Of a DNA stretch of 61,418 nucleotides, positions 11,725-55,968 are shown in pieces (the stretch's first letter is position 1; the number at the start of each line of letters is the position of its first letter). The notes under the pieces are model-generated. The model saw only the letters and a program-made list of their open reading frames with translations, was not told the DNA's origin and did not search any database. Source of the DNA: a virus. Taxonomy: Duplodnaviria > Caudoviricetes. The stretch is from the IMG/VR virus record IMGVR_UViG_3300034110_000167, positions 1-61,418 of that record; one strand, 5' to 3'. A program made the translations under genes and the position numbers.

Positions 11725-11738
11725 CCGGTACCTAATAG
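11722..11738 (+). promoter_or_regulatory. Putative phage RNAP promoter
   Basis: TAACCGGTACCTAATAG; one of 8 copies of the motif. Confidence 0.75.
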
Positions 11739-17722: not shown

Positions 17723-18009
17723 TGAGTGGAGCATCACCTAATGAAGTTCAAAATTTTGTTAATCAAAAATTTGGAGTAAATGCACCTTTAGCCCAAGTAC
17801 CTTCTGAGGCTGGCACTCTTGCAGGAATACCTGTAATGCAGTCTAGCACAAATGTACCTATTACGCAAGGTGAAACCTTTTTAAAGCCGTATGAAACTAC
17901 TGCTGCTAAACAGGCAATGACAGAAACATCTGGTGGCAAAGGTGCTGGGGCTCCTATAGCCCAACAAAGCAACAGACCCACTGGTAACGCTTATGAAATG
18001 AATACTTAA
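17722..18009 (+). CDS. Small virion-module protein (start MSGASP at 17722)
   Basis: TAATG overlap with the upstream stop; in frame with ORF 17635..18009. Confidence 0.6.
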   Translation: MSGASPNEVQNFVNQKFGVNAPLAQVPSEAGTLAGIPVMQSSTNVPITQGETFLKPYETTAAKQAMTETSGGKGAGAPIAQQSNRPTGNAYEMNT

Positions 18010-18558
18010 ATGGCACAATATCAAGATCCGTGGTCATGGGTTGACCAACAAAAACCTTCCGCGCCCTTAGCTGCTCAAATCCAACCATCAGCACCAGAAC
18101 AAGTGTCTCCTTTATATGTTCAACCAGAACAAGACCCTATGGAACAACAGCTACAAAGTATGGCTATGGGTAAAGGAGTTGAGGCGGTTGGTAAAGGTTT
18201 AGATACTGGTTACAAAGCTTATCAGGCAGGACAAGCAGCTTCTGCAATGGCACCTTTATCAGCTAATGCTGTTATTGGTTCAGCTGCACCTGCTATGAGT
18301 GTTGCACCTGTTATTGCCACACCCGCTACAGCTGCACTAACCGGAACCGCTGCTGCAAGTGGTGCTCCACTGTTAGCTGCTGCTCCGGCAATGTCTACTG
18401 CAGCAGGTGCCGCGCTAGGTGCTGGTGGTACAGCTGCTGCTGCACCATTGGCTACGGGTGCTGCTATGGCTGGCGGTGAAGCTGCATTAGCTGCCTTGGG
18501 TCCAGTAGGTTGGGCAATAGGCGCTGGTTTACTGGCCAAAAAATTAGGAATTTTTTAA
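18010..18558 (+). CDS. Ejection protein with Ala-rich hydrophobic C-terminus
   Basis: ALAALGPVGWAIGAGLLA membrane-interacting motif. Confidence 0.65.
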   Translation: MAQYQDPWSWVDQQKPSAPLAAQIQPSAPEQVSPLYVQPEQDPMEQQLQSMAMGKGVEAVGKGLDTGYKAYQAGQAASAMAPLSANAVIGSAAPAMSVAPVIATPATAALTGTAAASGAPLLAAAPAMSTAAGAALGAGGTAAAAPLATGAAMAGGEAALAALGPVGWAIGAGLLAKKLGIF

Positions 18559-24500: not shown

Positions 24501-25693
24501 CTTACACAAGGTATAGTCCACATGCTGCTATCAATACAAAGATTGAAAAGCTACAAAAAGAATTAGACATTGCTCAACAAAGTAATGATACTAAAACTTA
24601 TGAAAGAATTTCTAAAGAAGTTTCCGACCTCCACAGAAAAGCTTTTGGCAGATCATTGTTTGAAACCTTAGGTTATAATGAAACCGGATACAACACACAA
24701 GCTAAGTTTGAATTACCTAACAGTAATATGAGAAAGACTATGCAAGTGTTTGCTGCTATTATTGGCTTGAGAGCTACTACCGACTCTGTTCGTATTGCTT
24801 CTTTGGCTTTTGCCTCTGATGCAGTTATTACTAAGCTACAATCGCTAAGAGCTATTCCAGCGGAAGATCGGGTAACAGCGTTAACTACTGGTCGTGGTTT
24901 AGATAATCAACAAGGCCAAGCTCTTAAGGAACTTCAAGAGTCAGGCATGGATGTTCTAGGTGTTATAGAAGTACTAGACAATATGGAATCAATGAATCTT
25001 GATCCGTATGACTTCTTCTCTGAACAGAACCTAACTAAAGACGGTTATCCAGCTAATACACAAGCTAAGTTCCTACAAGAAAATATTCTTACGACTATTG
25101 GTAATATGACTGATGGTAAGATAGCTAACCCACAAGCGCATAATTTACCTAAGTATTACCATGATCCACGGCTACGTATAATTACTGCAATGACTCGCTT
25201 TATTGCAACCTTGCATGCAACTGTGCTACCAAAACTATACAGAAACTATATCCTAAATGGCGATGCTGGTATGCGTTACCAAGCCTTTAGTGTTGTTGCT
25301 ATGTCTATTATGTTCTCAATGTTAGCTAACATGATCAAAGATGAATTGTCCTATGGTGAAGAAAACCCTTATATTAAGGGTAAAGTAGCTAATGCACAAA
25401 GAACATTATATGGTTCTGGTTTATTAGGTCAGTATGAAAAGTTAGTAGATGGCATTATGCCATTGTATCCAGATAAGAAACCTTCTGTATTGGATAATCC
25501 TGTAAGATGGTCTTATGAAACGTTAAAAGATATTTCACCAGTTGTATCTTGGGCAGATAAGCCTGTTCAAGGTGCATACAAATTAAGTCAGGGAGATACT
25601 GCAGGTGGCGTTGCTCAACTAGTTAGAGCTGCACCCGTTGTAGGTAGTTTCCCTATTGTAGCTAATAAAGCAAAAGAAGCTTTAAAGGAGTAA
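21512..25693 (+). CDS. Large ejection protein with an N-terminal thermonuclease (SNase)-like domain
   Basis: [11 protein letters not shown]...[10 protein letters not shown]...DPYGRVLA matches the SNase VIDGDT / RL.GIDAPE / DxYGRxLA signature. Confidence 0.72.
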
Positions 25694-25699: not shown

Positions 25700-28600
25700 A
25701 TGGCAATTCAAACTAAAGTCGCACCTTTAGGTAGCCCGAAGTCTGGTCTTTCATTAGATCAAATGTTAGCATTACAAGGTCAAACTACAGCGGCTATGGG
25801 CACAGTACCAGCACCTGTAGAAGATCCAAGAGCCACTGTACAAGCTACAGTGGATCAGTATATGCCAGACCCAATGGCTATTCCACAACCAACTGCACCT
25901 TCAGAAGAAGTTCTTGCATCAACACCGACTATCAGAACATACGAAGATATTGCTCGTGCATCTGGTTCTCAGTTCGGTGCTCGTCCAGTAGAAGAACCTG
26001 TATTGGATGCTCAGGGTAATCCTGTAGTAGACCCCATGACAGGTATGCCCCAAATGAGGGTTATTACTCCGGAAGATTATGCGAATCAGCAGTCCATTGA
26101 AAAGGCTTCTCAGCTAAACACAATGGAAGCTATGGAAGGTATGGCTCAAGACCCTTACGGTCAAGCTAAAGACGCTACCTCCGCATTGTTGTCTGGTAAA
26201 CAAGACTCAATGTTCAATGCTTCAGCACGAGACGTTGCAAAGTCTTCTATGGATGAAGACACCATTGATAGATATTCTGACAAAACCGCTACTGCTTTGG
26301 CCACTATTGTTTCTCAAACCAATGATGCCTTGTTTACTGCTAATGCACGTATCAAGAGTGAAATGAAAGGTGCTGACGGTAGCTCTGTCCTTATTGCTGC
26401 TGGTCTTAAAGCAGCTGCTGAAGATGGTTTTAGTTCTCCGGAAGAGTTGGCTGACCTAGGTTTAGTCTTTGGCGTTGCCTTAGCTAAGTCTGCTTCACAG
26501 GGCAAAGTAGAAAAGGGTGAGAAAGAAGGTACAGGTAAAGTAATGTCTGAGTCAGGCGCATCAGTTGATGATGCTACCTACATGCTTGACTTTATTAATT
26601 CTATTAAACACTTTGCTACCAATGGTCTTAACCGTATGGGTAAAAAGGTATCAGCCAAAGCTGTTAACGAAATGGCTAAGGCTGTAGCTATGGACGCTAT
26701 TGACCGTGGTGCTGTAAAGGTATTCCATATTGGTGATCGCCCTGTAGTTCAAATGAGTTCAGATATTAAAGATATTGCTCGTGACCTACAGATTGCTTCA
26801 GAAGCTTTAGTAGGTGACTACGGTCGTAGACGCTCTTCTTCTACACCTAACCGTAGTGGTACTTCCTTTGCCGCTAACAGACCCCAATTAACTAAGCGTT
26901 CTATTAAGAAAGGTGACTTAGTTACTACTGCTGCTGAAGCTACTAAAGACATTCTCGGTTCAGTTGGTTTAATGTTTGGTGCTAAAGATATTCAATACAA
27001 AGAGATTGAACTAGGTTTAGTTATGAGTCCTGAGTATCTTGAAAAAGACTCTCAAGGTAAAATTAAGTGGAGTAATCATTGGGCGGCCAAGCGTTTAGGA
27101 GTAAGTGAAAAAGATTTCAATGCAGCTAAAATGAAAACAAAGCCTGAGAAAGACTTTAATCCTGCAGACCCAGATGCTGTTAGACGCTTTGAGGCACAAC
27201 AGGAATACCAAGCAACAGAAGTTATTAATAACAAACTAAAGACCATTGAGTTTGATATTAAGAACGCTAAAAGTTCTCCCGGTATTCGTTACTCAGAATG
27301 GGTACACAGTTTATCTAACCAACGATTCTTCCCTAACAGCTTTGACGTAGACTACATGGGTTCCAAAAATGCAACTCGTGATATGCTAGGTTTTGCAGTT
27401 AAAGAATATGTTACTTCAGACATGTTGTTTGATCCACGTACAGTAGAAAACCTTAAGCAAAAAGCTATTGGTATCCTACGTATGCCCGGTGAAAAACAAA
27501 ATGAAGCTTTAGAAAAATTAACACCTTCTGAGCGTGGTGCTATTGGCACTATGCTTAATGCTGTTATTGGTTACTACTCTGCCGTTGAAGGTTCTAATCC
27601 TGACATTGTTAAGGAAGCACCCGCATCTATTGTATCTAAATATACACCTGCTATTGGTGATAAACTAGCTGAGGCTGGTAGAGACTATAATGCTTTCCTT
27701 GTTGATCCTATGAATGCCTCTGATAACATTCAGGAGCTATTAGCCGGTATGGAAAAAGGCGAATCTATGGGTTCTAAAAACCTGTGGGATGACATGTTTA
27801 ATCTAAAGGCTGCTTCACTCATTCCTGAAACAAAGCGTAAGCATATTCCATTAACTCACCATGCATTTGACGATGGTAATCAGAACGGTATTTTCTTACA
27901 GGCACTATTCTTTGGTAGTCCTGATAATGCTATTCGTCTGGGTACCTTTAATCCCTCATTGGATGACATGCGTGAGTACGCAATGAATACCATGATTGCT
28001 AATTTGGAAGAGAACTTAAAAGATAATATTGAGGCTAACGATGCCTTCAGAAATTTCTTTAAGGCCGTTAGAGATAAGCAAGGTAAAGCAGTTATGTCTA
28101 AAGATTTCTTCAAGAAACCTTTGATGCAGAATGCTTATGGTAAAGATGCCAGTATGTTTGGTGATATGATGGTTGAAATCTTAACCAACGTATACCCAGA
28201 TGAAGCACAACAATACTTATTGAACAGCAGTGTTTACAACCGTGATGTTGATAAAGCATCCTCAGCTTTGAGTGACGCATTAGAAAGCACTCTCAGAGAA
28301 GTTATTAACTCTAAATCAACACAAGTTCTTAAAGACATTGGCCGGTATACAGCTATCCTTAACCAAACAGTTATGATGCCTGGTATTACTGGCGACACCT
28401 ATGTGCTTACACCTGTAGAGGTTGTACCTATTAACAAAGCAAATGATAGTGGAGAAATCTTACCTATTAAGCTTGATGATGGTACTACTGTTATGGTTAA
28501 GTATAAGGCGTATGAGTCAGATACTTTTATTAACAGTGAAGGTCAAGAAGTAACTGTGGAGTCAAGTGCTATGGGCTACAGTCCTGCAGCAAGTAAAGGC

Positions 28601-29494
28601 GCTCAGTTAATTTACAACCAAAGAACTAAAAAGTATGATGTGTTTAACAACGCTATTGGTACAAGTCAGTCACGACAAATGGTAGTTATGCCTATCCAGT
28701 CTATTGACGGTGACTTAGTTAAGTCTACTACACTATCTGTGAATAAAAATAGATCAACTCCAGTACCTATTTTATGGGTACACGACTCAGCTATTTCTAC
28801 TCCGGGCGGCTCATTGCTGTATCGTAATGCCTATAACAATATCTCTATTCCTAAAGCTATTCCTCAAATTGCTAAGTTTGGAAATCAATTTGCAGCTGTT
28901 ATTAAAGACAGTGAAGAAGCGGTGTTCAACAAAGTAATGGAAAGGGGTCGTCCAGTAAGTATCGGTGATCAAGGGGACTTCCCTGCACTAGGCTCTTACC
29001 TAGATGAGCAGTTTGAAAGAGTACAAGATGATGGTGCTTATAAACAAATCTTCTTAAAGAGAGCTTATAACAACGAAACAACTTGGCTGAAATACCAACA
29101 GAAGACTAACGCTATTCTAAAAGAAGCTGAAGCTAATGGTTGGAAAGCACCAAGAAGTATTCCCGATACAGCCAATATGACTGGTGAACAGATCAGAAGA
29201 CACCTTGCGGTTACACCAAGGCAATTCAAAAACTTAGTTAATCTTTCTAAAGAAATGTTAAAGCTAAGTGGACCCTCAAATAGGTTTGATTCTTGGGTTC
29301 GTAACTTCGCAAGTAATGTTAATGATACTGCTTCTAAGCTAATGACTGCATCTAAGAAAGATGGTATTGGTCAAATGACTTATGGCGCTACTGGTGAACG
29401 TGCTGGTATTACTAAGTCTAAAGCTATTGCTGAACAAATGGATATTAAACGAGACGAAGAGTTCGTAGCTAAATACGAAAAAGCTTTTAAGTAA
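25700..29494 (+). CDS. Putative virion-encapsidated single-subunit RNA polymerase
   Basis: Ordered T7/N4-type motifs: SNQRFF, FDDGNQNG (A), KDFFKKPLMQNAYG (B), PIQSIDG, VHDS (C); last gene of the ejection module; no Cys seen. Confidence 0.85.
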   Translation: MAIQTKVAPLGSPKSGLSLDQMLALQGQTTAAMGTVPAPVEDPRATVQATVDQYMPDPMAIPQPTAPSEEVLASTPTIRTYEDIARASGSQFGARPVEEPVLDAQGNPVVDPMTGMPQMRVITPEDYANQQSIEKASQLNTMEAMEGMAQDPYGQAKDATSALLSGKQDSMFNASARDVAKSSMDEDTIDRYSDKTATALATIVSQTNDALFTANARIKSEMKGADGSSVLIAAGLKAAAEDGFSSPEELADLGLVFGVALAKSASQGKVEKGEKEGTGKVMSESGASVDDATYMLDFINSIKHFATNGLNRMGKKVSAKAVNEMAKAVAMDAIDRGAVKVFHIGDRPVVQMSSDIKDIARDLQIASEALVGDYGRRRSSSTPNRSGTSFAANRPQLTKRSIKKGDLVTTAAEATKDILGSVGLMFGAKDIQYKEIELGLVMSPEYLEKDSQGKIKWSNHWAAKRLGVSEKDFNAAKMKTKPEKDFNPADPDAVRRFEAQQEYQATEVINNKLKTIEFDIKNAKSSPGIRYSEWVHSLSNQRFFPNSFDVDYMGSKNATRDMLGFAVKEYVTSDMLFDPRTVENLKQKAIGILRMPGEKQNEALEKLTPSERGAIGTMLNAVIGYYSAVEGSNPDIVKEAPASIVSKYTPAIGDKLAEAGRDYNAFLVDPMNASDNIQELLAGMEKGESMGSKNLWDDMFNLKAASLIPETKRKHIPLTHHAFDDGNQNGIFLQALFFGSPDNAIRLGTFNPSLDDMREYAMNTMIANLEENLKDNIEANDAFRNFFKAVRDKQGKAVMSKDFFKKPLMQNAYGKDASMFGDMMVEILTNVYPDEAQQYLLNSSVYNRDVDKASSALSDALESTLREVINSKSTQVLKDIGRYTAILNQTVMMPGITGDTYVLTPVEVVPINKANDSGEILPIKLDDGTTVMVKYKAYESDTFINSEGQEVTVESSAMGYSPAASKGAQLIYNQRTKKYDVFNNAIGTSQSRQMVVMPIQSIDGDLVKSTTLSVNKNRSTPVPILWVHDSAISTPGGSLLYRNAYNNISIPKAIPQIAKFGNQFAAVIKDSEEAVFNKVMERGRPVSIGDQGDFPALGSYLDEQFERVQDDGAYKQIFLKRAYNNETTWLKYQQKTNAILKEAEANGWKAPRSIPDTANMTGEQIRRHLAVTPRQFKNLVNLSKEMLKLSGPSNRFDSWVRNFASNVNDTASKLMTASKKDGIGQMTYGATGERAGITKSKAIAEQMDIKRDEEFVAKYEKAFK

Positions 29495-29500
29495 GCAAAT

Positions 29501-29547
29501 AAAAACCCCTACTAGGATTATTCCTAATAGGGGTTATTTTTTTTTTT
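29501..29547. terminator. Bidirectional rho-independent terminator at the junction of the two arms
   Basis: AAAAACCCCTACTAGGA-TTAT-TCCTAATAGGGGTT-ATTTTTTTTTTT; A-run on the left, T-run on the right. Confidence 0.9.
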
Positions 29548-29803
29548 ATTTACTTAGCTCTTTAATTTGGGACCGTACATCATCAGCTAACTTATCAGCC
29601 AAAGATAAAGCACTATCACTATCAATACCACGCTCAAGGTAAGACTCATAATTCTCTCGGTGCATTGCTTTAATAGCAGCATCATTAATGGCAGGTGTAT
29701 TAGCTAGCCGTGGGTCTAGCCCAAGGGTAGAGCATACATCCTGATCGGTTGTTTCGGTATCACCACGAAGGGCAAATAAATTATAATGTTTTAACTCAGA
29801 CAT
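29546..29803 (-). CDS. Hypothetical protein
   Basis: ORF track; likely start MSELKH. Confidence 0.65.
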   Translation of the reverse strand: MSELKHYNLFALRGDTETTDQDVCSTLGLDPRLANTPAINDAAIKAMHRENYESYLERGIDSDSALSLADKLADDVRSQIKELSK

Positions 29804-30222
29804 GAATCTACTTTCCATTTAAGTTTAGAGACTCCAGTCATATAGTCTCCGATATATGTTTCTAAGGCACCGTGGCCCTCAGCACCTGCTTCTTCATATA
29901 GTTTTTGGCTACAATCAAGAATCATTTTAAGATCATTACAGGTATTTGTCAGCATATCCTTTAACTTAGTCTCACCGGCAGATACATTAACAATACTGTC
30001 TGTAAGATAACTCTTCAAACTAATAGGTACTTTGTAACCCATTTGACGAAGCTGTTCGTTTAATGTGTCATGGTTCTCAAAAAGATATGTGTATACTTCA
30101 CTAAACAAATTGTGATACTGAACAAAGTCAGGACCAACAACGTTAAAGTGGTATACATGTGCGTTAAAATATGCCAGAAAATTATCGGCAATAAGGTTAT
30201 TCAGTTTTGTTTGGCAACTCAT
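29791..30222 (-). CDS. dps: Dps / ferritin-like protein
   Basis: HVYHFNVVGPDFVQYHNLFSEVY...HDTLNEQLRQMG retains the Dps ferroxidase H, H, D, E residues. Confidence 0.85.
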   Translation of the reverse strand: MSCQTKLNNLIADNFLAYFNAHVYHFNVVGPDFVQYHNLFSEVYTYLFENHDTLNEQLRQMGYKVPISLKSYLTDSIVNVSAGETKLKDMLTNTCNDLKMILDCSQKLYEEAGAEGHGALETYIGDYMTGVSKLKWKVDSCLS

Positions 30223-30352
30223 TTGTTTCCTTTGTTTCAGGGAACAACTCTTGCTGCTCCACTTCTTTTACTTTCTTACCAAAGATAGTATCCCAATTAC
30301 TTCGGACTTTATCTTCATCACAGGGTCTACGCCCTGAACCTTTACCACTCAT
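30197..30352 (-). CDS. Small conserved phage protein (51 aa; absent from the ORF track)
   Basis: Manual translation MSGKGSGRRP...NWDTIFGKK; GAAGG RBS. Confidence 0.65.
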   Translation of the reverse strand: MSGKGSGRRPCDEDKVRSNWDTIFGKKVKEVEQQELFPETKETNELPNKTE

Positions 30353-30535
30353 AATATACCTTCATGTTATTTTAACTTCATAGACAGGTTAAAATTAGGC
30401 GCTTGATAGCTACCCCATCCCATCTCTACAGACAATGCTTCTAACTCTAAATCTAATAAGAAAGCCCTATCATCGTGAAGAATTTCTTCAGGTGTCAGAT
30501 CATAGTTAGGGTTCATGTCTGCAATGTCATGTTCA

Positions 30536-30871
30536 TTAATCATCTTCTTCCTCTGATATTGCTTCTAAGATACTTTTATTACCACGCTTCTTATTAGCTT
30601 CTGTGTTTAGTTTAATAAAGTCTGTAGTAGCTTCTTCTAGATATGTTCTTAGGTTTGTTAATTCAAAGATTAATAAATTTAGTTTATCCATTTTTTCTTT
30701 AACAGCTTTGGCTTCCCACATATTGAAATCAAGATCAATACGTCTGTTACAGTCAGTCAGTGTAACATCACAACCAAAGTTCCATGCCGTATAGTTAGCA
30801 TCTACTTCAATACAAGCAATCCCTTTTGTTTTGTTAAGGAATTTCCTTACATGATATTTCTTTTTAGCCAT
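30536..30871 (-). CDS. Hypothetical protein (start MAKKKY at 30871)
   Basis: AAGGA RBS; the longer ORF-track start overlaps tRNA-Arg. Confidence 0.7.
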   Translation of the reverse strand: MAKKKYHVRKFLNKTKGIACIEVDANYTAWNFGCDVTLTDCNRRIDLDFNMWEAKAVKEKMDKLNLLIFELTNLRTYLEEATTDFIKLNTEANKKRGNKSILEAISEEEDD

Positions 30872-30888
30872 TTTAATCCTTAGGTTAT

Positions 30889-30963
30889 TGGAGGGTAGTA
30901 GAGGAATCGAACCCCTATTCAAGCGGTAGAAGCACTTTGTATTATCCGTTATACGAACCACCC
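30889..30963 (-). tRNA. tRNA-Arg(TCT)
   Basis: Cloverleaf; anticodon arm AAGTG-CTTCTAC-CGCTT; GTTCGATTC; encoded CCA. Confidence 0.9.
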
Positions 30964-31012
30964 AATAGTTTGCACCCTTTATTTTACTATGCGGGTGCTA
31001 CATAGGACGCCT

Positions 31013-31537
31013 TTACTGTGACGACAACAGCCCTAAGGTATTCCCATTTAAGGGAGGGATCTTTTCAAAGCTATATCCTTGATGTGTACTTTGTTTACCA
31101 TTTAAACATTTATACACTGCTTCTGGAGTAAAACCAAAATCTTTTAATTCATTTTTACCTGATAATGTAATTGACACACCATCTTTAACAGCCTTAATTT
31201 TGTATTTAGTTAAACCAATTCTACTTTTATTACCAATAGCTTGTTTACCATTAGGTTTAGGTGGCTTACCACCTCCTTTAATAATGTTCCAACCTATTTT
31301 ATCATTAGGTCTAAGCATTTCTTCAGCAAGCAAAACTAATTCTTCATCTAATCCAACAACTAACGGTTGCTTAATTAATTTATCCCAAGAATATTTTGAT
31401 ATAACATTATTTAAAATAGCGTTAGGGTAAGCAAAGTGTTCTTTCATTCGCCTATCAAAATTATTTGTAATGCCAATATATCCTTGAGAGTTATAGTCAT
31501 TATGGTTAGGACTACAGATCCAATATAATGTATACAT
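31013..31537 (-). CDS. Free-standing GIY-YIG homing endonuclease (Seg-like) within the tRNA cluster
   Basis: TLYWI...GYIGITNNFDRRMKEH; C-terminal NUMOD1-like VYKCLNGKQSTHQGYSF; AT-rich. Confidence 0.82.
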   Translation of the reverse strand: MYTLYWICSPNHNDYNSQGYIGITNNFDRRMKEHFAYPNAILNNVISKYSWDKLIKQPLVVGLDEELVLLAEEMLRPNDKIGWNIIKGGGKPPKPNGKQAIGNKSRIGLTKYKIKAVKDGVSITLSGKNELKDFGFTPEAVYKCLNGKQSTHQGYSFEKIPPLNGNTLGLLSSQ

Positions 31538-31552
31538 ATAGTCCTTTCTATT

Positions 31553-31626
31553 TGGAAGCGGGTACTGGATTCGAACCAGTGATGCTGCGAGCTTATGAGA
31601 CTGCAGTAGTGACCACCTTACCCGCT
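31553..31626 (-). tRNA. Atypical tRNA with CAT anticodon (Met/Ile2-like)
   Basis: Perfect acceptor stem AGCGGGT/ACCCGCT, T arm, CCA; shortened D arm and extended anticodon stem. Confidence 0.7.
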
Positions 31627-31632
31627 ATTGTT

Positions 31633-31709
31633 TGGTCTCAAGAACCGGACTCGAACCGATAACCAATGAATTATGAGTTCACTGCTCTAACCAGTTGAGC
31701 TATCTTGAG
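31633..31709 (-). tRNA. tRNA with CAT anticodon (elongator Met or Ile2)
   Basis: Canonical cloverleaf; GTGAA-CTCATAA-TTCAT; CCA. Confidence 0.9.
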
Positions 31710-31717
31710 TATTTGTT

Positions 31718-31793
31718 TGGCATACCCCGTAGGACTTGAACCTACAACCTGTGGGTTTGGAATCCACTGCTCTGCCAATTGAGCTAGAGGCAC
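31718..31793 (-). tRNA. tRNA-Trp(CCA)
   Basis: Cloverleaf; loop TTCCAAA; G73; CCA. Confidence 0.88.
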
Positions 31794-31800
31794 ATTTGTT

Positions 31801-31888
31801 TGGTGGATGCTCTTGGAATCGAACCAAGTGTGCTCCTTAGAGCGGAGGATTTACAATCCCCTGAAGTCACCAATGCTTCTCAACATCC
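31801..31888 (-). tRNA. tRNA-Tyr(GTA)
   Basis: GGGGA-TTGTAAA-TCCTC; long variable arm; CCA. Confidence 0.92.
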
Positions 31889-31894
31889 TTTGTT

Positions 31895-31970
31895 TGGCTG
31901 GCAAACCTGGGCTCGAACCAGGGACATCATGATTAACAGTCATGCGCTCTACCAACTGAGCTATATGCCA
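31895..31970 (-). tRNA. tRNA-Asn(GTT)
   Basis: CATGA-CTGTTAA-TCATG; canonical D and T arms; CCA. Confidence 0.93.
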
Positions 31971-32060
31971 AAAGGGTATACGTCTCATATACCTAGTATT
32001 TCGTTTTGTATACCGTATAATACTTACTACGGGGTTAAGTCACCGAGAATCCCCAGTTTC

Positions 32061-32077
32061 CTATTAGGAACCGGCTA
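32061..32077 (-). promoter_or_regulatory. Putative phage RNAP promoter for the tRNA cluster
   Basis: TAGCCGGTTCCTAATAG, overlapping the nrdB stop codon. Confidence 0.75.
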
Positions 32078-33044
32078 GTTTACCCCAGTCCCAGTCACCT
32101 TCCATACCATTAATAGAGTATTCAGTAACACGCTTCTCAAAGAAATTGTCATGGGACACACCATTAAGAATCCAGTCTAACCAAGTCAGTGGATTCTCTT
32201 TTACTTTGAAGTTAGTCTTAAGACCTAGTTGAAGCAATCTACGATCGGTAATATACCGGATGTACTGCTTAACATCTTCTTTAGTAATACCTTCAATATC
32301 ATATTCGGCAAATGCAAGATCAATAAAGCTATCTTCAAGACCAACTACATCTCGAGCCATCTGATAAATCTTAGATTTAAATTCATCATTAACTACTTTA
32401 GGGTGCTCATTACAGAACTCCCTGAATAGCCGTGAGTTACCTTCTACGTGTACAGTCTCATCTCTAATAGACCATTCAACAATAGTGCTCATACCTTTCA
32501 TCTTACCAAACCGTTGTAGGTTAAGTAGCATAACAAAGGAAGCAAACAAAGATACACCTTCGTTTAATACTGACTTAGCTAATGACAAGGCCAAGCCCGA
32601 TTGTGTTGATGAGTCAGACCTAGCCATAAAGTCAATCTTGTCCGACATTTCTTTATAGTCAAGAAACTTATGAAACTCTTCGTCAGGTAAACCTAAGGTG
32701 TCGTTGAGTAAAGCATAAGCACGTTGGTGGGTACCTTCACGACCAGCAAAGGAACCTAACATAACTCGTACTTCATTGTTTTTAAACTTAGGAATTAAGA
32801 AGTCATAATAGTTCTGACCTACTTGTACATCGCCCTGAGTAAACAACCGTAAGATATTAGTAATAAAATCTTTTTCACCATTTGTTAACTTGATTTTCCA
32901 ATCATTAACGTCTTCAGATAAGTCAGCCTCATCCTCTGTCCAGTGAATCTCTTCGTGTTTCTTAGTAATTTCTACAGCCCATTCATGGTTAAATGGTTTG
33001 TAGGTCTTAGAGAAATTTAGTAATGATGACATATTATCCTTCAC
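32064..33044 (-). CDS. nrdB: Ribonucleotide reductase class Ia, beta subunit
   Basis: FTQGD, EGTHQRAY (radical Tyr), NEG, RDETVH, NFFEKRVTEY. Confidence 0.95.
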   Translation of the reverse strand: MKDNMSSLLNFSKTYKPFNHEWAVEITKKHEEIHWTEDEADLSEDVNDWKIKLTNGEKDFITNILRLFTQGDVQVGQNYYDFLIPKFKNNEVRVMLGSFAGREGTHQRAYALLNDTLGLPDEEFHKFLDYKEMSDKIDFMARSDSSTQSGLALSLAKSVLNEGVSLFASFVMLLNLQRFGKMKGMSTIVEWSIRDETVHVEGNSRLFREFCNEHPKVVNDEFKSKIYQMARDVVGLEDSFIDLAFAEYDIEGITKEDVKQYIRYITDRRLLQLGLKTNFKVKENPLTWLDWILNGVSHDNFFEKRVTEYSINGMEGDWDWGKLAGS

Positions 33045-35013
33045 AAGCTTTACATTCGTTATCTTCTTGAACTACTTCAGTTAACTCTTTGTAGAGTTCG
33101 TTGAATCCCCCAATGTATACACCATTGAGATATACCTGAGGTAAGGATCTAACATCAGGTCGTCCTGTGATTTCTGCTGCTGTTTTGCCTGTAGTTGTGA
33201 TGTCAACATATTCAAATTCAATTCCTCGGGAGTCAAGCAAGGACTTTGCCATAGTGCATTGGGGGCAGTTTGGTTTACCATAAATAATTGTTTCCTTAAT
33301 TTCAATCAATTTGTCTTCCTTTACCTTTTCAGATACATTCTCTGCCCGTTGTTTAGCTTCGGTACGTAAGTAGTATAAACCTTTAAGACCTTTATCCCAT
33401 GATTTAAAGTGTACCGAGTTAACATAACTTCTGTCAGCACCTGCAGGGAACGCCAGATTAACTGATTGCCCTTGGCAGATATATCTTTGACGATCTGCTG
33501 CATGGTCTACAACCCAATGCTGATCTAATTCAAAGAATGTTTTAAAAATATCTTTTGTTTCTTTGGATAAATCTAAGTGTTGAATACTACCTTTGTTAGT
33601 AATAATAGAAGACCAAACAGCTTCTGTATTCATACCTAGTGCATCAAGCTTCTTCTCAAGGTATTTGTTTTTAACTAAGAAAGAACCTGCACGGGTACGG
33701 TGAGTGTAAGCATTTGCCTTGTTAGGCTCAATACTAGGAGACGTACTCAGTAAAATACCTGAAGAGGCGTTAGGCGCAATAGCTAGTAGGTGAGCATTAC
33801 GTTTGCCGCTACCAACCATATCTAAGGCTTCTCCACGATATTCACCTAACCAATAAGTTTCTTTTAAAGCTTGTTGCTTAATACGACTGAAAATAGTAAT
33901 GTTGTTTAGACGGGCTTCATCAGATTCAAAAGGAATACCTTTACGTTGTAAATATTCATGGAAACCCATAGCACCCAGACCAATAGAGCGTTCATGTTTA
34001 GCTGAGAACACAGCCCGTGATAATGCATCATGAGCGTTCTCAATAAAGTATTCTAGTACGTTATCAAGCATACGTACTAAGTCTTCAACCATATGGGTAT
34101 CTTTCCAATCATCGTAGTATTCTAAGTTGACTGAAGATAAACAGCATACTGCGGTACGGTCTTCACTGGTAGGTAAATGAATTTCATTACACAAATTACT
34201 ACCGTGAATTTTAAGACTTTTATCCTTTAGTTCTTGTGGTAAAGCTTCGTTAGCCGTATCAATAAAGTTTAAGTATGGTTCACCAGTACGGAAACGAGTC
34301 TCAAGCAACTTAGCCCACACAGTACGTGCATCTAGGAATTCACCTGTGTTACCTACTTTGGGGTCTACCAATTCATAGGTTTTACCGCTCCGAACACAAT
34401 CCATAAAATGATCACTGATATTAACAGCATTATGGAGATTAAAACACTTACGATTAACATCGCCTGTGGGAATACGTAAACCAATGAATTCAAGAATATC
34501 AGGGTGATCAATGTTAAGATAGGCAGCATAAGAACCTTTCCGGGTTTTTCCTTGTCGATAAGCAGTCATATCAGCATCTACTGTATGTAAGAATGGGATA
34601 GGGCCAGGCGCTACGTCCGATACTGAACGAACATCAGACCAATGGCCACCAACACCACCACCCATTACAGACAACCAACGTAGCTCAGAGGAATGATCAA
34701 TCAAGCCTTGTACAGTATCAGGTACGTATGTAAGGAAACAACTAATAGGTAATCCTTTAGCTTTCTGACCGTCAATAGGTGCATTTGAAAGCACAGGAGA
34801 GGCAAACATAAACCACTTCTTAGACACATAGTCATACAGACGTTGTGCCAAGTCTTCGTCTCGTACACCTTTGTATACGCTCCATGCCCATGCTGCTCGT
34901 GCAAACACGTCTTGTGGGGAATTTTCACCCTCTTTAGAATAAAAATCCATGATCATATCTACAGCATAATCTGTAAGCAAAGTATCACGGATGTATTCAA
35001 TCTTAATATTCAT
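33034..35013 (-). CDS. nrdA: Ribonucleotide reductase class I, alpha subunit, with a fused glutaredoxin domain
   Basis: PISCF, GSNLCNEI, AIAPNASS, KGLYY; Grx domain CPQC...SLPQV...IGGF; terminal CKAC. Confidence 0.95.
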   Translation of the reverse strand: MNIKIEYIRDTLLTDYAVDMIMDFYSKEGENSPQDVFARAAWAWSVYKGVRDEDLAQRLYDYVSKKWFMFASPVLSNAPIDGQKAKGLPISCFLTYVPDTVQGLIDHSSELRWLSVMGGGVGGHWSDVRSVSDVAPGPIPFLHTVDADMTAYRQGKTRKGSYAAYLNIDHPDILEFIGLRIPTGDVNRKCFNLHNAVNISDHFMDCVRSGKTYELVDPKVGNTGEFLDARTVWAKLLETRFRTGEPYLNFIDTANEALPQELKDKSLKIHGSNLCNEIHLPTSEDRTAVCCLSSVNLEYYDDWKDTHMVEDLVRMLDNVLEYFIENAHDALSRAVFSAKHERSIGLGAMGFHEYLQRKGIPFESDEARLNNITIFSRIKQQALKETYWLGEYRGEALDMVGSGKRNAHLLAIAPNASSGILLSTSPSIEPNKANAYTHRTRAGSFLVKNKYLEKKLDALGMNTEAVWSSIITNKGSIQHLDLSKETKDIFKTFFELDQHWVVDHAADRQRYICQGQSVNLAFPAGADRSYVNSVHFKSWDKGLKGLYYLRTEAKQRAENVSEKVKEDKLIEIKETIIYGKPNCPQCTMAKSLLDSRGIEFEYVDITTTGKTAAEITGRPDVRSLPQVYLNGVYIGGFNELYKELTEVVQEDNECKACEG

Positions 35014-35042
35014 TGTTGTTCCTTGTTAGTATTTATTGTTAG

Positions 35043-35059
35043 GTATTAGGTACCAGCTA
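35043..35059 (-). promoter_or_regulatory. Putative phage RNAP promoter upstream of nrdA
   Basis: TAGCTGGTACCTAATAC. Confidence 0.72.
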
Positions 35060-35070
35060 TTCTCGCTACA

Positions 35071-37278
35071 TTAGCAAAAGAAATATTTTGAATTAATTAC
35101 TTCGGCTAAGTCTAAATTACCTAGCTCAGGTTGTTCAAAAGTAAAGGAGTCTTTGTTAAGCATCAAAGTATCTTTAAGTACTTCAAAGAAGTTTTCCACA
35201 TCATATTGTGCAATGAATGTTACTTTAGTTACTTCTTGTAGAAAGTCCACTTCATCAGCATGGGTACTAAATGAGTCGTGAACCGCACCAAATGAACCAT
35301 TGAAAGAAACAATAGTGTTAGCCATATGAGCAGCATCATAGGAATGAACAACGTTAGGGCTAATACCAGACGCAAAACTACGGCGGCAAGGTACACGCTC
35401 ATTAGTCTCTTTATTAATGACATCGACTTTAACCACATGCATGACACGACCGTCTTTATTGCCTTGAATACCTTTAATAGTACCACGTTGTTTCCTTTCA
35501 TGTTGTAGGTTAGCCTTATACACTACAGGAAAACCACTTGGGGTATGCCAAGTTAAATTGTTACGGCCAGAGTTTAATTCATGTTCAGCTATTTTCTGTA
35601 GGAACTTAGTAGTTTTCAGTGGACCAGCACATACACTGTTAATAGCTTTAATAAGGTTACTGGCAAGGTTATTACAGTCATCCTCACTGATACCATACTT
35701 TACCGTAAAGCCTTCCATGTGACAGTCATCGTACATGTTCTTTGCAATACGTTGCTTACCCGCTGAGTATGCTCGGGTCATAGAACCACGTTTGGCAATG
35801 CCTTTACGGATATGTTTCATGGGCATTTGCTTTTCATTAAACCATTCAGGCATAACAGTAATAAGCTCTTTAGCTACAGCTACATAGAAGTCTTTCTGAA
35901 TAGGAGTAGGTACTAAGGAGACTAATGTACCTGCTTGTTTATCCTTAGACATAGCTGCCAGATGTTGCCAACCGTTGTTACTACCATCAATAGGAATAGG
36001 AAACCCTGACATGTATTCTTGTCGTAAGATTTTACACTTATGATATGCAGCAATCTCAATACAACAAGCTAAGAAGCTATAAGGTTTTTCGGCACTGTGA
36101 TCAATGTATTTAGCACGAGCTGATTGAATAATAAACTCTAGGTTATGTTTAACCCATAGAGCACGATCATCCAACGTCATTTTATCTACAGAGATAGTGT
36201 CCAGACCTTCATCTTGGAGGTATTTAGCATAATCTGTGGTAAGGTATACCATACTTTTAAGCTCATCGATTGAATATGATTTGTTGTAACAAGCTGCAGT
36301 GTGTACGCTAAGCCAGTAGTAGCCTCGTTCACTGACCCGTTTTTTGTTAGCAAACAAAAACAAGGATCGAGCAAGATCACTTCCTTGGAATTCAAGAAAG
36401 GATTCAGCGTAATATACTCGTCCACGATAGTCACAGGATACCTCTTGATAAAATGTTTTGTTACCAACCAACTCAGCCTTCTTAATGACTTGATTATACT
36501 CAAAGTATTTACTAAGCATACGTTGTAGCTTAGGGTCTTTCTTACCTAAGAATTTTGTACCGTCAAGGTTATTAAGCTTCTTTGGTAAGTGCAGGTTTTC
36601 ATGGTGGATATTGTATAGTTGGATCTCACCATTTTCATCGACTAACTCTAGTACTTCTGGTGGTTTAACCGCTTTCATAGCAGACAACAATGGCTGATTT
36701 AATTGCCAAGGTTGTTGGCGTAACCCTTCAAGACTTTGAATGAAAGGTTTACTTAAGTACTCGTGAAACAGTTTACTGTTAGTCCATCCTTTAATAAAAG
36801 GTTCTTTAGTTAAAGGGCTATATAAACCAGCAATAGGTAGTAAGGGCTCAAAAGAAGTACCGATAAGTGTAGGCTTAATGTCATCGTCCATATTAACAAT
36901 ACGAACTAAGTAAGGTGCCTTACGACCATCGTATTCTCTGAAGATATCTATTAGGCTATCTTGTAGGAATGTCTCAAGTAGAAGATCTCCCAGAGACAAA
37001 GTAGTTTTGATATCTGATTCGTCAGCCCCAATACCTCGGGCAATTCTCTTTCCAATAAGATCAGATGCAAATGTGAGTTTAACGGATGCTGAATGAGTAG
37101 CATTTTTATTTCGGATACAGTATTTGAGTAAGGTATCCCATGCCTCATTGATAAATCGTTCGAGATCATACTCCCAAGTTGAATGATGTGCCAGAAGACG
37201 AGCACCTTCATTCTGAATCTTATCTGAGTTGAGGGCAATCTTCGATACACGTTCAGTAAGATATTGTAGTGGATTCAT
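35071..37278 (-). CDS. T7-like single-subunit DNA-directed RNA polymerase
   Basis: DYRGRVY, PIDGSNNGWQH (A), RKGIAKRGSMTRAYS (B), GISPNVVHSYDA, VHDSF (C). Confidence 0.96.
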   Translation of the reverse strand: MNPLQYLTERVSKIALNSDKIQNEGARLLAHHSTWEYDLERFINEAWDTLLKYCIRNKNATHSASVKLTFASDLIGKRIARGIGADESDIKTTLSLGDLLLETFLQDSLIDIFREYDGRKAPYLVRIVNMDDDIKPTLIGTSFEPLLPIAGLYSPLTKEPFIKGWTNSKLFHEYLSKPFIQSLEGLRQQPWQLNQPLLSAMKAVKPPEVLELVDENGEIQLYNIHHENLHLPKKLNNLDGTKFLGKKDPKLQRMLSKYFEYNQVIKKAELVGNKTFYQEVSCDYRGRVYYAESFLEFQGSDLARSLFLFANKKRVSERGYYWLSVHTAACYNKSYSIDELKSMVYLTTDYAKYLQDEGLDTISVDKMTLDDRALWVKHNLEFIIQSARAKYIDHSAEKPYSFLACCIEIAAYHKCKILRQEYMSGFPIPIDGSNNGWQHLAAMSKDKQAGTLVSLVPTPIQKDFYVAVAKELITVMPEWFNEKQMPMKHIRKGIAKRGSMTRAYSAGKQRIAKNMYDDCHMEGFTVKYGISEDDCNNLASNLIKAINSVCAGPLKTTKFLQKIAEHELNSGRNNLTWHTPSGFPVVYKANLQHERKQRGTIKGIQGNKDGRVMHVVKVDVINKETNERVPCRRSFASGISPNVVHSYDAAHMANTIVSFNGSFGAVHDSFSTHADEVDFLQEVTKVTFIAQYDVENFFEVLKDTLMLNKDSFTFEQPELGNLDLAEVINSKYFFC

Positions 37279-37286: not shown

Positions 37287-38891
37287 TTAATCAAAGTCAA
37301 CAAGAGAAGTTTTCTTTAGACGACCTGTTTTAGAGTCGTAGCTGGTACTACCACAGTCACCAGTTTTACCTGTGAACCGTGATTTAAGTACCCGTAACTT
37401 AATAGTGTTACGTAGTTGCTCTGTCTCAGCAATCATGTTACGAGCAAAAGCAATAATGTCAAAGGAAATCTGTTTGATAGAACCAGAACCTTTGATATCG
37501 TCAATAGAAGGTAAATGACCTTCTTCAAAAGGCTTTTCACCTTTACGTAGGTGAGATACAACACCTAACCAGATGTTGTGCTTCTTACATAGCTTAAGTA
37601 AGTCAGACATCAATGAGTCAACAGCCTCATTACCTGTTTTACCTTTAGAACCTTCACTTACAGCAATAGTAATGTGGTCTAGGATAATATACTTGCAACC
37701 CATTAAAGCTAGTCGTTCCATCTTGTCTACTAGAGACTCATCACTTACAGAACCTTGATGATCAAGTAAAACCAACCGTTCATCACCAAACACTTTATTA
37801 AAGGCAGCATACTGTTCCTCTTCGGTTACATCATCTACAGTAAGGTTCTTCTTAAGCTCCATACCAATAAATTTCTCTGCAGTATCACCCACAGATTCTT
37901 CTAATGATACCATGCCTACCATATCCCCAGTCTTTTCAAGGATATTTAAGACAATCTCTTTAATAACAGTTGACTTACCTGAGCCTGTACCTGAGGTGAA
38001 CAAAACAATTTCGCCCAGACGCATACCAAAAAGTTTCTCATTCAGAGAGTCCAGGCAATGAGGGTAAGGTAAAGATACAATTGTTTGCTTAAGCTTAAAT
38101 TGTTCCCATACAGCCTCACCTTTAACAATACCAGCAGGACTCATCTCTTTGGCATCAAAGATACATTGCATTAGTTTTAGTGATCCGTGTTTAATAAGCA
38201 CATCACACGGATCTTTTTCAGGTAGCGTAACTAATTTGACTTTATCATAGCCAATTATCTTAGCAGCTTCTTGAGCAGCTTTTTGACCGGGTTCATCCAT
38301 GTCAAAGCATAATACTACTTCATCGAAAGATCGTAACCACTCGCGCTGTTCAAGGATGAGAGACTTACTGCTAGCTGACGGGACCGCAACCGCTGGATAA
38401 AATCGTTGATACTTATCGTATTGTGCTTGAGCAACTGCCAGAGCATCGAGTTCACCCTCAGCGATAACAATCCGTTTTCCTCCAGACGATACACTTTGTC
38501 CGAAGAATTGTACATCCTTAAATTCACCGTGGATATTAAACTTCTTTGGTAGCTTACGTTCTTTGTATGCCACAATCTGACCGTCTTTAGTATAAGGATA
38601 GAAGTGGCTACTGATAGTACCGTCTTCTGCATAGCTAACTTTAACGCCGTAGTATGCAGCAACTGTTTTTGTAATACCTCGTTCTTGAAAACCACGGGTG
38701 TCATAAGATTGAATTTCATTTAGTGTGTGCATATCGTAATTTTCTTTAGTATATGTTGAAGACTTTACTTCAGGATTGATAGGTGAATTCTTATTACAAC
38801 TAAAACAAAAGCCCCATTCATCTTCATCTTTGTAAGAAAAGGCATCTGATGAATGACATTTAGGGCATGGTGCATGGTACCATCTAGACAT
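37287..38891 (-). CDS. DNA primase-helicase (T7 gp4-like)
   Basis: CPKC/CFSC zinc finger; TOPRIM EGELD and DMD; GTGSGKST; ILDHI; KSRFTG. Confidence 0.96.
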   Translation of the reverse strand: MSRWYHAPCPKCHSSDAFSYKDEDEWGFCFSCNKNSPINPEVKSSTYTKENYDMHTLNEIQSYDTRGFQERGITKTVAAYYGVKVSYAEDGTISSHFYPYTKDGQIVAYKERKLPKKFNIHGEFKDVQFFGQSVSSGGKRIVIAEGELDALAVAQAQYDKYQRFYPAVAVPSASSKSLILEQREWLRSFDEVVLCFDMDEPGQKAAQEAAKIIGYDKVKLVTLPEKDPCDVLIKHGSLKLMQCIFDAKEMSPAGIVKGEAVWEQFKLKQTIVSLPYPHCLDSLNEKLFGMRLGEIVLFTSGTGSGKSTVIKEIVLNILEKTGDMVGMVSLEESVGDTAEKFIGMELKKNLTVDDVTEEEQYAAFNKVFGDERLVLLDHQGSVSDESLVDKMERLALMGCKYIILDHITIAVSEGSKGKTGNEAVDSLMSDLLKLCKKHNIWLGVVSHLRKGEKPFEEGHLPSIDDIKGSGSIKQISFDIIAFARNMIAETEQLRNTIKLRVLKSRFTGKTGDCGSTSYDSKTGRLKKTSLVDFD

Positions 38892-43936: not shown

Positions 43937-43953
43937 GTATTAGGTACCGACTA
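43937..43953 (-). promoter_or_regulatory. Putative phage RNAP promoter upstream of the replication genes
   Basis: TAGTCGGTACCTAATAC. Confidence 0.72.
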
Positions 43954-53259: not shown

Positions 53260-53276
53260 GAGCTGGTACCTATTAG
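53260..53276 (+). promoter_or_regulatory. Putative phage RNAP promoter for the isolated + strand gene
   Basis: GAGCTGGTACCTATTAG. Confidence 0.65.
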
Positions 53277-53772: not shown

Positions 53773-53789
53773 CTATTAGGTACCGGCTA
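53773..53789 (-). promoter_or_regulatory. Putative phage RNAP promoter (consensus copy)
   Basis: TAGCCGGTACCTAATAG. Confidence 0.78.
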
Positions 53790-55722: not shown

Positions 55723-55724
55723 TA

Positions 55725-55967: not shown

Positions 55968-55968
55968 T

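Follow-up and report, generated by a model that had tools for sequence, protein, structure and literature searches.

Two Single-Subunit RNA Polymerase Genes, One Recognizable Mainly by Its Predicted Fold, in the Genome of an Uncultured CRP-7-Type Podophage

Introduction

How is transcription divided in a podophage whose late and replication arms converge on a central hairpin, with a giant gene of no recognizable sequence family closing one arm and a T7-type RNA polymerase (RNAP) gene lying in the other? The question is raised by the record IMGVR_UViG_3300034110_000167, the whole stretch of 61,418 bases that was analyzed here and is referred to as the window. A preliminary description of this DNA had proposed that the giant gene encodes a virion RNAP (vRNAP) that is injected and transcribes the early arm, that the T7-type enzyme transcribes the middle and late genes, and that transcription could thereby be largely independent of the host. 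The present analysis partly supports this interpretation. Two single-subunit RNAP genes are indeed present, one of 735 amino acids (aa) identified by PF00940 and one of 1264 aa identified by structure prediction and active-site motifs, and they are found together at every informative locus of the related viruses. The latter protein, called here the hidden RNAP, contains no cysteine (Cys) and is a candidate for ejection into the host cell. The elements on which the argument turns are the following.

25700-29494, plus strand: hidden single-subunit RNAP, 1264 aa, 0 Cys, assigned by AlphaFold2 (AF2), Foldseek and motifs; candidate virion or ejected RNAP
35071-37278, minus strand: T7-type single-chain RNAP, 735 aa, 11 Cys, assigned by PF00940, phrog_414, a PDB match and motif alignment
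29504-29535, between the convergent arms: hairpin whose 14-bp stem is preceded by an A-run and followed by a T-run; candidate bidirectional terminator

The window comprises the entire genome of an uncultured podophage that belongs to the same group as roseophage CRP-7, its type representative. The virus record is circularly assembled and complete (ca. 61.2 kb, bases 1-225 recurring at 61194-61418), with a CheckV completeness of 99%. Near-identical DNA occurs in lake-water metagenome runs, at least half of the sampled words being found in nine runs, one of which is possibly the source.

Identity of the Hidden RNAP

Family-level and profile searches do not assign the 1264-aa open reading frame (ORF). 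It matches 0 families in Pfam and PHROGs, it has no tblastn match among 50,697 phage records, and against the PDB sequences phmmer returns just a chance match (E 0.5). A profile of 45 homologues (A1) finds no RNAP among the PDB sequences by hmmsearch, and hhalign gives the hidden-RNAP profile a probability of 0.5% against the N4 mini-vRNAP and of 0.1% against the window's own T7-type RNAP. Since sequence profiles do not connect the family to known enzymes, the assignment of the protein as an RNAP rests on its predicted fold and its motifs.

The first hint came from a BLASTP alignment with gp33 of CRP-7 (E 3e-7, 20% identity), in which the conserved islands resembled the polymerase motifs A, B and C. 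A word-indexed search yields 70 homologues of 776-1401 aa, mostly 1200-1400 aa, none of which contains a Pfam domain and whose source names are at best "hypothetical protein". The A1 alignment has invariant residues at DGNQNG, K-x7-Y-G-K-D and H-D. When this alignment is used as the AF2 input, for residues 65-1264 and without templates, the resulting model has a mean pLDDT (predicted local distance difference test) of 88.3 and a predicted template-modeling score (pTM) of 0.87.

The model gives 73 Foldseek matches in the PDB at E<=1e-3, and all 50 of the 50 listed are single-subunit RNAPs, with probability 1.00, alignments of ca. 1000-1350 columns and template-modeling (TM) scores on the target of up to 0.59. 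The best match is the yeast mitochondrial RNAP (8atv, 1.3e-14), and the human mitochondrial RNAP is also matched. T7 RNAP follows (3e3j, 2.1e-12, TM 0.59 on the target), together with the N4 mini-vRNAP (2po4, 4.3e-10; also 3c3l) and the RNAP domain of N4 gp50 (9pnq, 8.2e-10). The predicted viral structures of BFVD yield 54 matches under the same cut-off of E<=1e-3, the best being T7-like RNAPs and the middle segments of N4-like vRNAPs.

The active-site motifs of the hidden RNAP are NQR (R542), motif A DDGNQNG (D725), motif B K805-x7-Y813-G814 and motif C H1028-D1029, R542 occupying the place of the T/DxxGR motif. A core alignment of 24 sequences from three clades, which are 16-60% identical to the window sequence and 16-20% identical between clades, contains 14 invariant columns, including R542, D725, K805, Y813, G814 and D1029. 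By motif context, we take D725, K805, Y813 and D1029 to be the counterparts of D537, K631, Y639 and D812 of T7 RNAP. Variation is seen around these positions, motif C reading HDS, HDA or FDN depending on the clade, and the motif B lysine being an arginine in CRP-7 gp33, where both catalytic aspartates and the Tyr-Gly pair are kept. On the predicted fold and these residues, the 1264-aa protein is almost certainly a single-subunit RNAP with an intact active site.

The family is large. A profile of the core alignment retrieves 486 cluster representatives at 50% identity among 1.84 billion, 416 of them at E<=1e-10. The longest relative among the best 150 of the 486 representatives has 1476 aa, so that these are members of a compact-enzyme family and not fragments of N4-size proteins.

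The T7-Type RNAP

The 735-aa ORF scores 194.3 bits on the Pfam family RNA_pol PF00940 (cut-off 22, E 4.6e-57; a repeat on the record gives 185.2 bits), and it matches phrog_414 at 9.8e-99 and T7 RNAP chains among the PDB sequences at 7.7e-28. The motifs DYRGR (D283), A DGSNNGWQH (D431), B KRGSMTRAYS (K496...Y504-S505) and C VHDSF (D668) lie at the expected places in the alignment with T7 gp1 and CRP-7 gp30. Judged from its sequence, ORF 35071-37278 on the minus strand is a genuine T7-type single-subunit RNAP. Its nearest cultured-phage match is that of CRP-7, with 29% identity over 99% of the query.

The preliminary description had pointed out that this enzyme is shorter than the 883-aa T7 RNAP and that it has Tyr-Ser instead of Tyr-Gly in motif B, and both remarks hold. 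The alignment shows ca. 150 aa fewer, mainly at the N-terminus, and motif B reads MTRAYSAG as compared to MTLAYGSK in T7. The substitution is a property of the group: over the 113 relatives' loci that cover motif B, the T7-type RNAP has Tyr-Ser in 110, Tyr-Thr in two and Tyr-Gly in none, one locus having escaped the pattern, and CRP-7 gp30 has Tyr-Ser too.

Some relatives carry interruptions of this gene. At locus L007 (17776-19977, minus strand) an in-frame TAG replaces the Tyr of DYRGR (codon 284), which is seen in one of 124 loci and may reflect a sequencing error, a genome that is defective or readthrough of the codon. Insertions immediately 3' of the motif A residues DGSNNG are found at seven loci (L203, L202, L206, L211 and L213, with shorter ones in L012 and L035). 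The one in L203 (11256-11499) is a group I intron (RF00028, 88.8 bits, E 3.5e-23) with an endonuclease-like ORF, and in the versions of ca. 730 nucleotides (nt) the start of the ORF appears GIY-YIG-like by eye. Finally, in L165 the N-terminal 150 residues of the T7-type RNAP are encoded a second time, in part, at 456-905, ca. 1.5 kb upstream of the full gene.

Arrangement and Co-occurrence of the Two Genes

The hidden RNAP gene is the last gene of the plus arm, so that the description of it as closing the late arm is borne out. The T7-type RNAP gene is likewise placed as had been described, between the primase-helicase and nrdA genes, with ca. 20.6 kb separating its start codon from the position near 57.9 kb at which the first early ORFs lie.

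37287-38891, minus strand: primase-helicase
33034-35013, minus strand: nrdA, the large subunit of ribonucleotide reductase

The picture of two RNAP genes facing each other across a central terminator needs to be qualified. The arms are convergent and the hairpin at 29504-29535 lies between them, but the two genes are not symmetric about it, ca. 5.5 kb of minus-strand genes (small ORFs, five tRNAs, nrdB and nrdA) separating the terminator from the T7-type RNAP gene. The likeness to the N4 layout stands, because N4 gp50 is also the last gene of the late arm, there oriented leftward and facing the end of the rightward arm.

To what extent the two genes belong together can be seen in the related viruses. 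The forward survey comprises 63 IMG/VR loci that encode a relative of the hidden RNAP. A T7-type RNAP is found on the opposite strand in 51 of them, starting 0.4-5.2 kb past the match in the convergent arrangement, and in the remaining 12 the contig ends 13-3928 nt beyond the match. The reverse survey takes the T7-type RNAP as the query and comprises 73 loci. In 21 of these, tblastn detects a homologue of the hidden RNAP in convergent orientation, 42 have less than 5.5 kb of downstream sequence and no match, and 10 have more downstream sequence yet no tblastn match.

Nine of these last 10 loci have a convergent ORF of 960-1204 aa in the right place, four of which are found by the A1 hidden Markov model (HMM). 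Eight of the nine ORFs form, together with two weak tblastn positives, one clade by BLASTP, the alignment of which matches A1 in hhalign with 99.7% probability (E 2.7e-26, 770 columns) and the motifs A, B and C of which read AIDMNSAGR, KKVLLTTDYGK and PVFDNFI. The ninth ORF (L157) is linked to the hidden-RNAP family by its HMM match, and at the tenth locus (L155) the downstream sequence contains other genes and stops short of a convergence point. Both RNAPs are thus present at the informative loci in 51 of 51 cases in the forward and in 30 of 30 in the reverse direction, no informative locus lacking either gene; the apparent breaks in the T7-type gene are the TAG and the insertions described above. 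The pair is strictly conserved in the relatives; therefore, the frequent loss or decay of one of the two RNAPs, which the preliminary description had named as evidence that would speak against it, is not what they show.

The two enzymes differ strongly in their divergence. At the same loci, the T7-type RNAP is 54-88% identical and the hidden RNAP less than 20%. As measured by these identities, the two RNAPs evolve at very different rates, the hidden one much faster. The wider group is well represented, 210 IMG/VR stretches having matched the terminase of this phage.

Composition and Neighbors of the Hidden RNAP

The hidden RNAP gene is the third of three contiguous giant genes (975, 1393 and 1264 aa) that close the late arm on the plus strand and end at 29494, an arrangement comparable to that of T7 gp16 after gp14 and gp15. 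Two small ORFs precede them.

17042-18558, plus strand: two small ORFs of 226 and 182 aa, 0 Cys, just upstream of the giant genes
18568-21495, plus strand: 975-aa protein, 0 Cys, with a lysozyme/transglycosylase-like domain; first of the three giant genes, candidate ejection protein
21512-25693, plus strand: 1393-aa protein, 0 Cys; second giant gene, candidate ejection protein

The 975-aa protein matches phrog_873 (6.3e-35) and phrog_7182, "tail injection transglycosylase" (2.7e-19). The AF2 model of residues 194-1393 of the 1393-aa protein is all helix, with a pLDDT of 70.8. The 226- and 182-aa ORFs have no PHROG match and may belong to the same internal or ejected set.

The composition of these proteins is distinctive. 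The last five late genes encode 0 Cys in 4040 residues, as compared to 1.4-3.9% Cys in the replication enzymes that were counted and 0.3% in the nrdB subunit. Within the hidden-RNAP family, 53 of 70 members have no Cys, the maximum being two and the mean 0.26 per protein, and in two divergent clades 19 of 20 members are Cys-free, as opposed to 9-16 Cys in the T7-type RNAPs encoded at these loci (n = 45). The same division is found in the controls. In N4, gp50 (3500 aa), gp51 and gp52 have none; in T7, gp15 and gp16 have none and gp14 has one, as compared to 12 in the RNAP gp1; and in CRP-7, gp33-35 have none and gp30 has 14.

The Cys-free composition and the position behind two giant Cys-free proteins fit an injected protein, by analogy with these systems. 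From position, neighbors and composition, the hidden RNAP is likely to be packaged and ejected.

Several further observations were made on these genes. The N-terminal ca. 150 residues of the 1393-aa protein (21512-21950) resemble a staphylococcal nuclease (SNase)/thermonuclease domain, which is at present a lead only. Two of the 55 homologues of this protein are named "endonuclease YncB (thermonuclease family)" in their source and an SNase-bearing Atlas cluster matches at 0.90, while the N-terminus has no Pfam match at E<=0.01; for a candidate ejection protein, a nuclease domain would be out of the ordinary. The chain of the PhiM1 ejectosome appears for the 1393-aa protein only at rank 50 with a probability of 0.25 and was not used as evidence. 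We have also considered that the three giant ORFs (975 + 1393 + 1264 = 3632 aa) correspond to a split gp50, which finds no sequence support: the A2 profile gives a probability of 0.2% against full-length N4 gp50, and the best E value of the 975-aa protein against N4 gp50 in BLASTP is 0.12.

Promoter-Like Motif of the Middle and Late Genes

A repeat search revealed a motif that is common to intergenic positions. Its core, CYGGTACCTAATA, has seven sites in the window at <=1 mismatch against 0.17 expected, a number that none of 100 shuffles reaches, and an eighth copy has two mismatches. Alignment of the sites gives the 18-bp consensus tAGCCGGTACCTAATAgg, with every site pointing at downstream genes. 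The core copies, and the genes that they help to place, are as follows.

58542-58554, plus strand: motif with two mismatches, 45 nt before the gene of the large terminase (TerL), at the head of the late arm
58599-60242, plus strand: TerL
11725-11737, plus strand: motif inside the structural arm, ca. 300 nt upstream of a PhoH-like gene
12031-12714, plus strand: PhoH-like gene inside the structural arm (phrog_170, 4.4e-75)
55254-55266, minus strand: first motif on the minus arm, at the end of a motif-free early region of ca. 3.2 kb
53774-53786, minus strand: motif in the middle region
53263-53275, plus strand: motif with one mismatch, directly upstream of the lone plus-strand ORF (53300-53698) in the minus arm
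43938-43950, minus strand: motif upstream of the dCMP deaminase/DNA polymerase block
35044-35056, minus strand: motif 15-27 nt past the stop codon of the T7-type RNAP
32062-32074, minus strand: motif with one mismatch, upstream of the tRNA cluster

The copy that follows the RNAP stop codon is at the same position in 12 relatives' loci and is analogous to the phi1.1A promoter of T7, located 26 nt beyond gene 1. Upstream of TerL, at a distance of 33-125 nt, 10 of 35 relatives' loci have the core without mismatch.

One phage-specific motif thus heads the middle genes and the late arm, which fits a phage RNAP, rather than that of the host, driving both. The earlier proposal that a second RNAP serves the middle and late genes is supported to this extent; its assignment to the T7-type enzyme is made by analogy only. 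By that analogy, the T7-type enzyme probably reads the 18-bp motif on both arms. A T7-lysozyme-like amidase gene (46115-46651, minus strand; phrog_2252, "endolysin; inhibits RNA polymerase", 5.1e-41) suggests a T7-style modulation of the T7-type RNAP.

Early Region

Upstream of the first minus-strand motif lies the putative early region. On the simplest reading, these first ca. 3.2 kb are transcribed in a way of their own, either by the injected RNAP or by that of the host.

55267-58500, minus strand: putative early region with about a dozen small ORFs, devoid of the 18-bp motif on the minus strand
57610-57648 and 57194-57242: a pair of stable hairpins between early genes, with stems of 11-14 bp (z -3.0 and -3.7)

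Both hairpins contain GTACCT(A/G)TAG, which resembles the promoter core (flanks GTACCT(A/G)TAG...CTATGGG), and one of them recurs with compensatory stem changes in two of 35 relatives' loci, which are close relatives, in a pattern search. With stems of this length, they could equally be processing or termination sites. Two candidate early promoters derived from them were rejected: a 12-nt motif from the two hairpins has no genome-wide enrichment (15 vs 12.1), and the pattern GTACCTRTAGRA occurs seven times vs 1.3, but is exact only in the two hairpin copies.

The beginning of the early arm contains in addition a tract of ca. 490 nt (ca. 57950-58440) that is almost free of T on the plus strand (27 T, as compared to 193 A, 155 C and 115 G, the share of T falling to 2.3% in the poorest 300 nt), so that a minus-sense transcript would be almost free of A. 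Three overlapping ORFs in the tract are probably artifacts, because stop codons are missing there. The feature is conserved: in 35 of 35 relatives' loci the most T-poor 300-nt stretch (0.3-15.7% T) lies 390-870 nt upstream of the terminase gene, and a T-poor tract of 158-884 nt is found in 19 of 20 loci measured and in the other not at all, at 66-88% nucleotide identity. It might form an R-loop or serve as an origin, be the DNA that enters first, or provide a leader for the early polymerase.

Proposed Transcription Program and Alternatives

The program that we propose is as follows. The 1264-aa RNAP would be made late and would enter the capsid along with two other giant proteins, the lysozyme-domain one of 975 aa and the helical one of 1393 aa; it would be ejected into the cell before the DNA. 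It would there transcribe the first ca. 3 kb of the minus arm, the least certain step, and it may in addition assist the entry of the DNA and continue transcribing in the direction of the T7-type RNAP gene. The 735-aa T7-type RNAP would then take over from the 18-bp duplex promoter, as assigned by the T7 analogy, and would express the replication genes of the middle blocks, the tRNA cluster and the late arm, to which the gene of the hidden RNAP itself belongs; the T7-lysozyme-like protein may modulate this enzyme. Since two phage RNAPs would cover the program, the host RNAP may be largely dispensable, unlike in N4. We assign a probability of roughly 0.6 to the whole, an N4-style two-polymerase program built from different parts. 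For the particular step in which the hidden RNAP makes the early transcripts, the chances appear evenly balanced.

A number of observations weigh against this program. The packaging, ejection and activity of the hidden RNAP are inferred and not directly observed, and the protein has no detected sequence homology to N4 gp50 or to the T7-type RNAPs. Similarity to the N- or C-terminal domain of N4 gp50 is seen in neither of its giant neighbors, of 975 and 1393 aa, and the 1393-aa model has no Foldseek match in the PDB at E<=1e-3, known ejection proteins included. The scaffold and a 632-aa tail protein are also without Cys, which makes the Cys-free signature suggestive and not specific. In the early region, no N4-type short hairpin promoters were identified, and the 3.4 kb examined contain 14 sigma-70-like sites against 7.7 +/- 3.2 expected in a consensus scan. 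A good site of this type, TTTAGA-18-TATAAT, lies at 58510-58481, at the start of the early arm. Finally, the T7-type RNAP gene lies ca. 18 kb downstream of the motif-free early region, so that its first expression does not follow from the program.

Given the mild enrichment of sigma-70-like sites, the host RNAP could make the early transcripts. The hidden RNAP would in that case be ejected mainly as a part of the DNA-delivery machinery, gripping or pulling the genome or priming replication, while early mRNA synthesis is left to the host enzyme at sigma-70-type promoters, in the manner of T7 and the phiKMV-like phages, and all else to the T7-type RNAP. The phiKMV-like phages, as far as the available text describes them, indeed combine an RNAP gene placed late in the replication block with early transcription by the host RNAP (PMC7552054), and the lack of a recognized N4-type promoter in the early region points the same way. 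However, the consensus scan is weak evidence (z ca. 2), and the invariance of the catalytic residues across clades that are less than 20% identical argues for real polymerase activity. We consider this alternative unlikely, although it is the one to be taken most seriously. It is also conceivable that the hidden RNAP is not packaged at all but is a late-made cytoplasmic enzyme, either a second transcriptase for a subset of genes or a primer-forming polymerase for replication or packaging. The 3' end of a late arm can gather unrelated cargo genes as well, and packaging of the protein is only inferred. Against this stand the absence of Cys from all 1264 residues and from 53 of 70 relatives, when the counted cytoplasmic enzymes have 0.3-3.9%, and the fact that the same composition is common to N4 gp50-52 and T7 gp15-16, which are experimentally ejected. 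The contiguity with the gene of the lysozyme-domain giant protein and the much faster divergence as compared to the T7-type partner also disfavor a cytoplasmic role, and we regard it as very unlikely.

The extreme sequence divergence and the change of motif C between clades would be compatible with an inactive structural ejection protein that has retained a polymerase fold, leaving one functional RNAP as in the Autographiviridae. Yet the catalytic aspartates, the motif B lysine (arginine in CRP-7) and the Tyr-Gly pair are kept in 24 of 24 sequences of the three clades and in CRP-7 gp33. Such retention of the active site is not expected in a dead enzyme and counts against this explanation, which is the least probable of those considered here; by its modeled fold and active-site residues, the 1264-aa enzyme is predicted to be catalytically competent. 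At the other extreme, one may imagine a group that is fully independent of the host RNAP, in which a compact ejected enzyme of a third single-subunit lineage, neither N4- nor T7-type, starts on the T-poor, strongly strand-biased tract at ca. 57950-58440, and the synthesis of a leader that needs essentially no ATP reels the genome in, after which the 18-bp promoters are served by the T7-type enzyme. Injection of a polymerase would on this view be an ancient strategy, widespread among aquatic podophages and no peculiarity of the Schitoviridae. This is a speculative scenario, and we hold it to be rather improbable.

Remaining Features of the Genome

The other genes are distributed over the two arms in the following way.

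Spanning the window junction, plus strand: portal gene
Late arm, plus strand: scaffold, major capsid and tail/fiber genes
Minus arm, from ca. 58.5 kb down to 29546: ca. 3 kb of small ORFs, then RNA ligase, DNA ligase and dCMP deaminase
Minus arm: family A DNA polymerase and exonuclease
Minus arm, between nrdA and the terminator: nrdB, five tRNAs and some small ORFs
30889-31970, minus strand: five-tRNA cluster (Arg-tct, Met, Trp, Tyr, Asn), between nrdB and the terminator and downstream of a promoter-motif copy

The nrdA product has a glutaredoxin domain fused at its C-terminus (PF00462, 1.9e-14, residues 576-634). For CRP-7, the available text reports only tRNA-Arg(TCT) (PMC6918029).

Implications

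To carry a single-subunit RNAP in the virion is regarded as the mark of a single family. Here, an RNAP with an N4-like fold, gene position and composition, and unrecognizable by sequence, marks a large group of uncultured aquatic podophages. If it is injected, the N4 strategy is older or has been reinvented more often than thought, and the giant N- and C-terminal domains of gp50 are unnecessary for the ejection of a polymerase. A minimal, naturally Cys-free RNAP able to pass a phage tail would then become available for study, and both enzymes, together with the 18-bp promoter, would be candidate orthogonal transcription tools. The idea is directly testable, because the relative CRP-7 is in culture.

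Comparison with Known Systems

The hidden RNAP resembles N4 gp50 in its single-subunit RNAP fold, in being encoded by the gene that closes the late arm, where the two arms converge and behind other (here candidate) ejection-protein genes, in being Cys-free, and in being accompanied by a second phage RNAP of the T7 family. The N4 gene order is gp52-gp51-gp50, with gp50 after the ejection-protein genes, and N4 RNAP II, a T7-family enzyme made after infection, takes over from the injected one, while the late genes use the host RNAP with N4SSB, according to the available text of PMC13434306. The differences are nevertheless considerable. N4 gp50 has ca. 3500 aa in three domains with the RNAP in the center, whereas the hidden RNAP has 1264 aa and lacks the large N- and C-terminal domains; its neighbors have 975 and 1393 aa, one with a lysozyme-like domain, vs 150 and 644 aa in N4. 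RNAP II of N4 is a heterodimer of gp15 and gp16, while the enzyme found here is one chain of 735 aa, and the late arm here is headed by a phage promoter-like motif, while the N4 late genes rely on the host RNAP. The rest of the genome is not N4-like either, with its T7-type primase-helicase and family A DNA polymerase. By size and by sequence homology, the hidden RNAP falls outside the N4-type virion RNAP family.

With T7 and the Autographiviridae, the phage shares the PF00940 enzyme with the T/DxxGR, A, B and C motifs, a promoter-like site after the RNAP gene and a T7-lysozyme-like gene. The Cys-free candidate ejection proteins, including the one with a lysozyme-type domain, recall T7 gp16. 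The Autographiviridae, however, have no second RNAP, whereas the genome studied here is ca. 61 kb long with convergent arms and two RNAPs.

Roseobacter phage CRP-7 (MK613349) is the only cultured relative found. It shares the order of DNA polymerase, exonuclease, primase and RNAP (gp30), followed by the convergent giant genes gp35, gp34 and gp33; gp33 aligns with the hidden RNAP with the motif residues kept, and gp33-35 are annotated as "hypothetical protein". The differences lie in the low identity (only 20-29%) and in the origin, CRP-7 being a sea isolate and the present DNA being found in lake-water metagenome runs. In its available text, the CRP-7 report describes one RNAP (ORF30), and a second RNAP is unmentioned there (PMC6918029). 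In the openly accessible articles that were searched, supplements aside, no CRP-7-type phage is described as having a second RNAP.

A virion-packaged RNAP outside the Schitoviridae is present in the crAss-like phages (gp66 of phi14:2). That enzyme is of the two-barrel, multisubunit-like type, whereas Foldseek places the hidden RNAP with the T7/pol I-like type. A large Cys-free protein has also been proposed as a vRNAP in Stenotrophomonas phage StenR_269, a non-N4 podophage, a proposal that, in the available text, rests on size, absence of Cys and helical content, with low-confidence models (PMC10747016). As compared to StenR_269, with which the comparison is by description only, the hidden RNAP has a confident predicted RNAP fold and active-site motifs. 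The system found in the window is probably a variant of the N4 strategy outside the Schitoviridae, with an enzyme about a third of the size of gp50.

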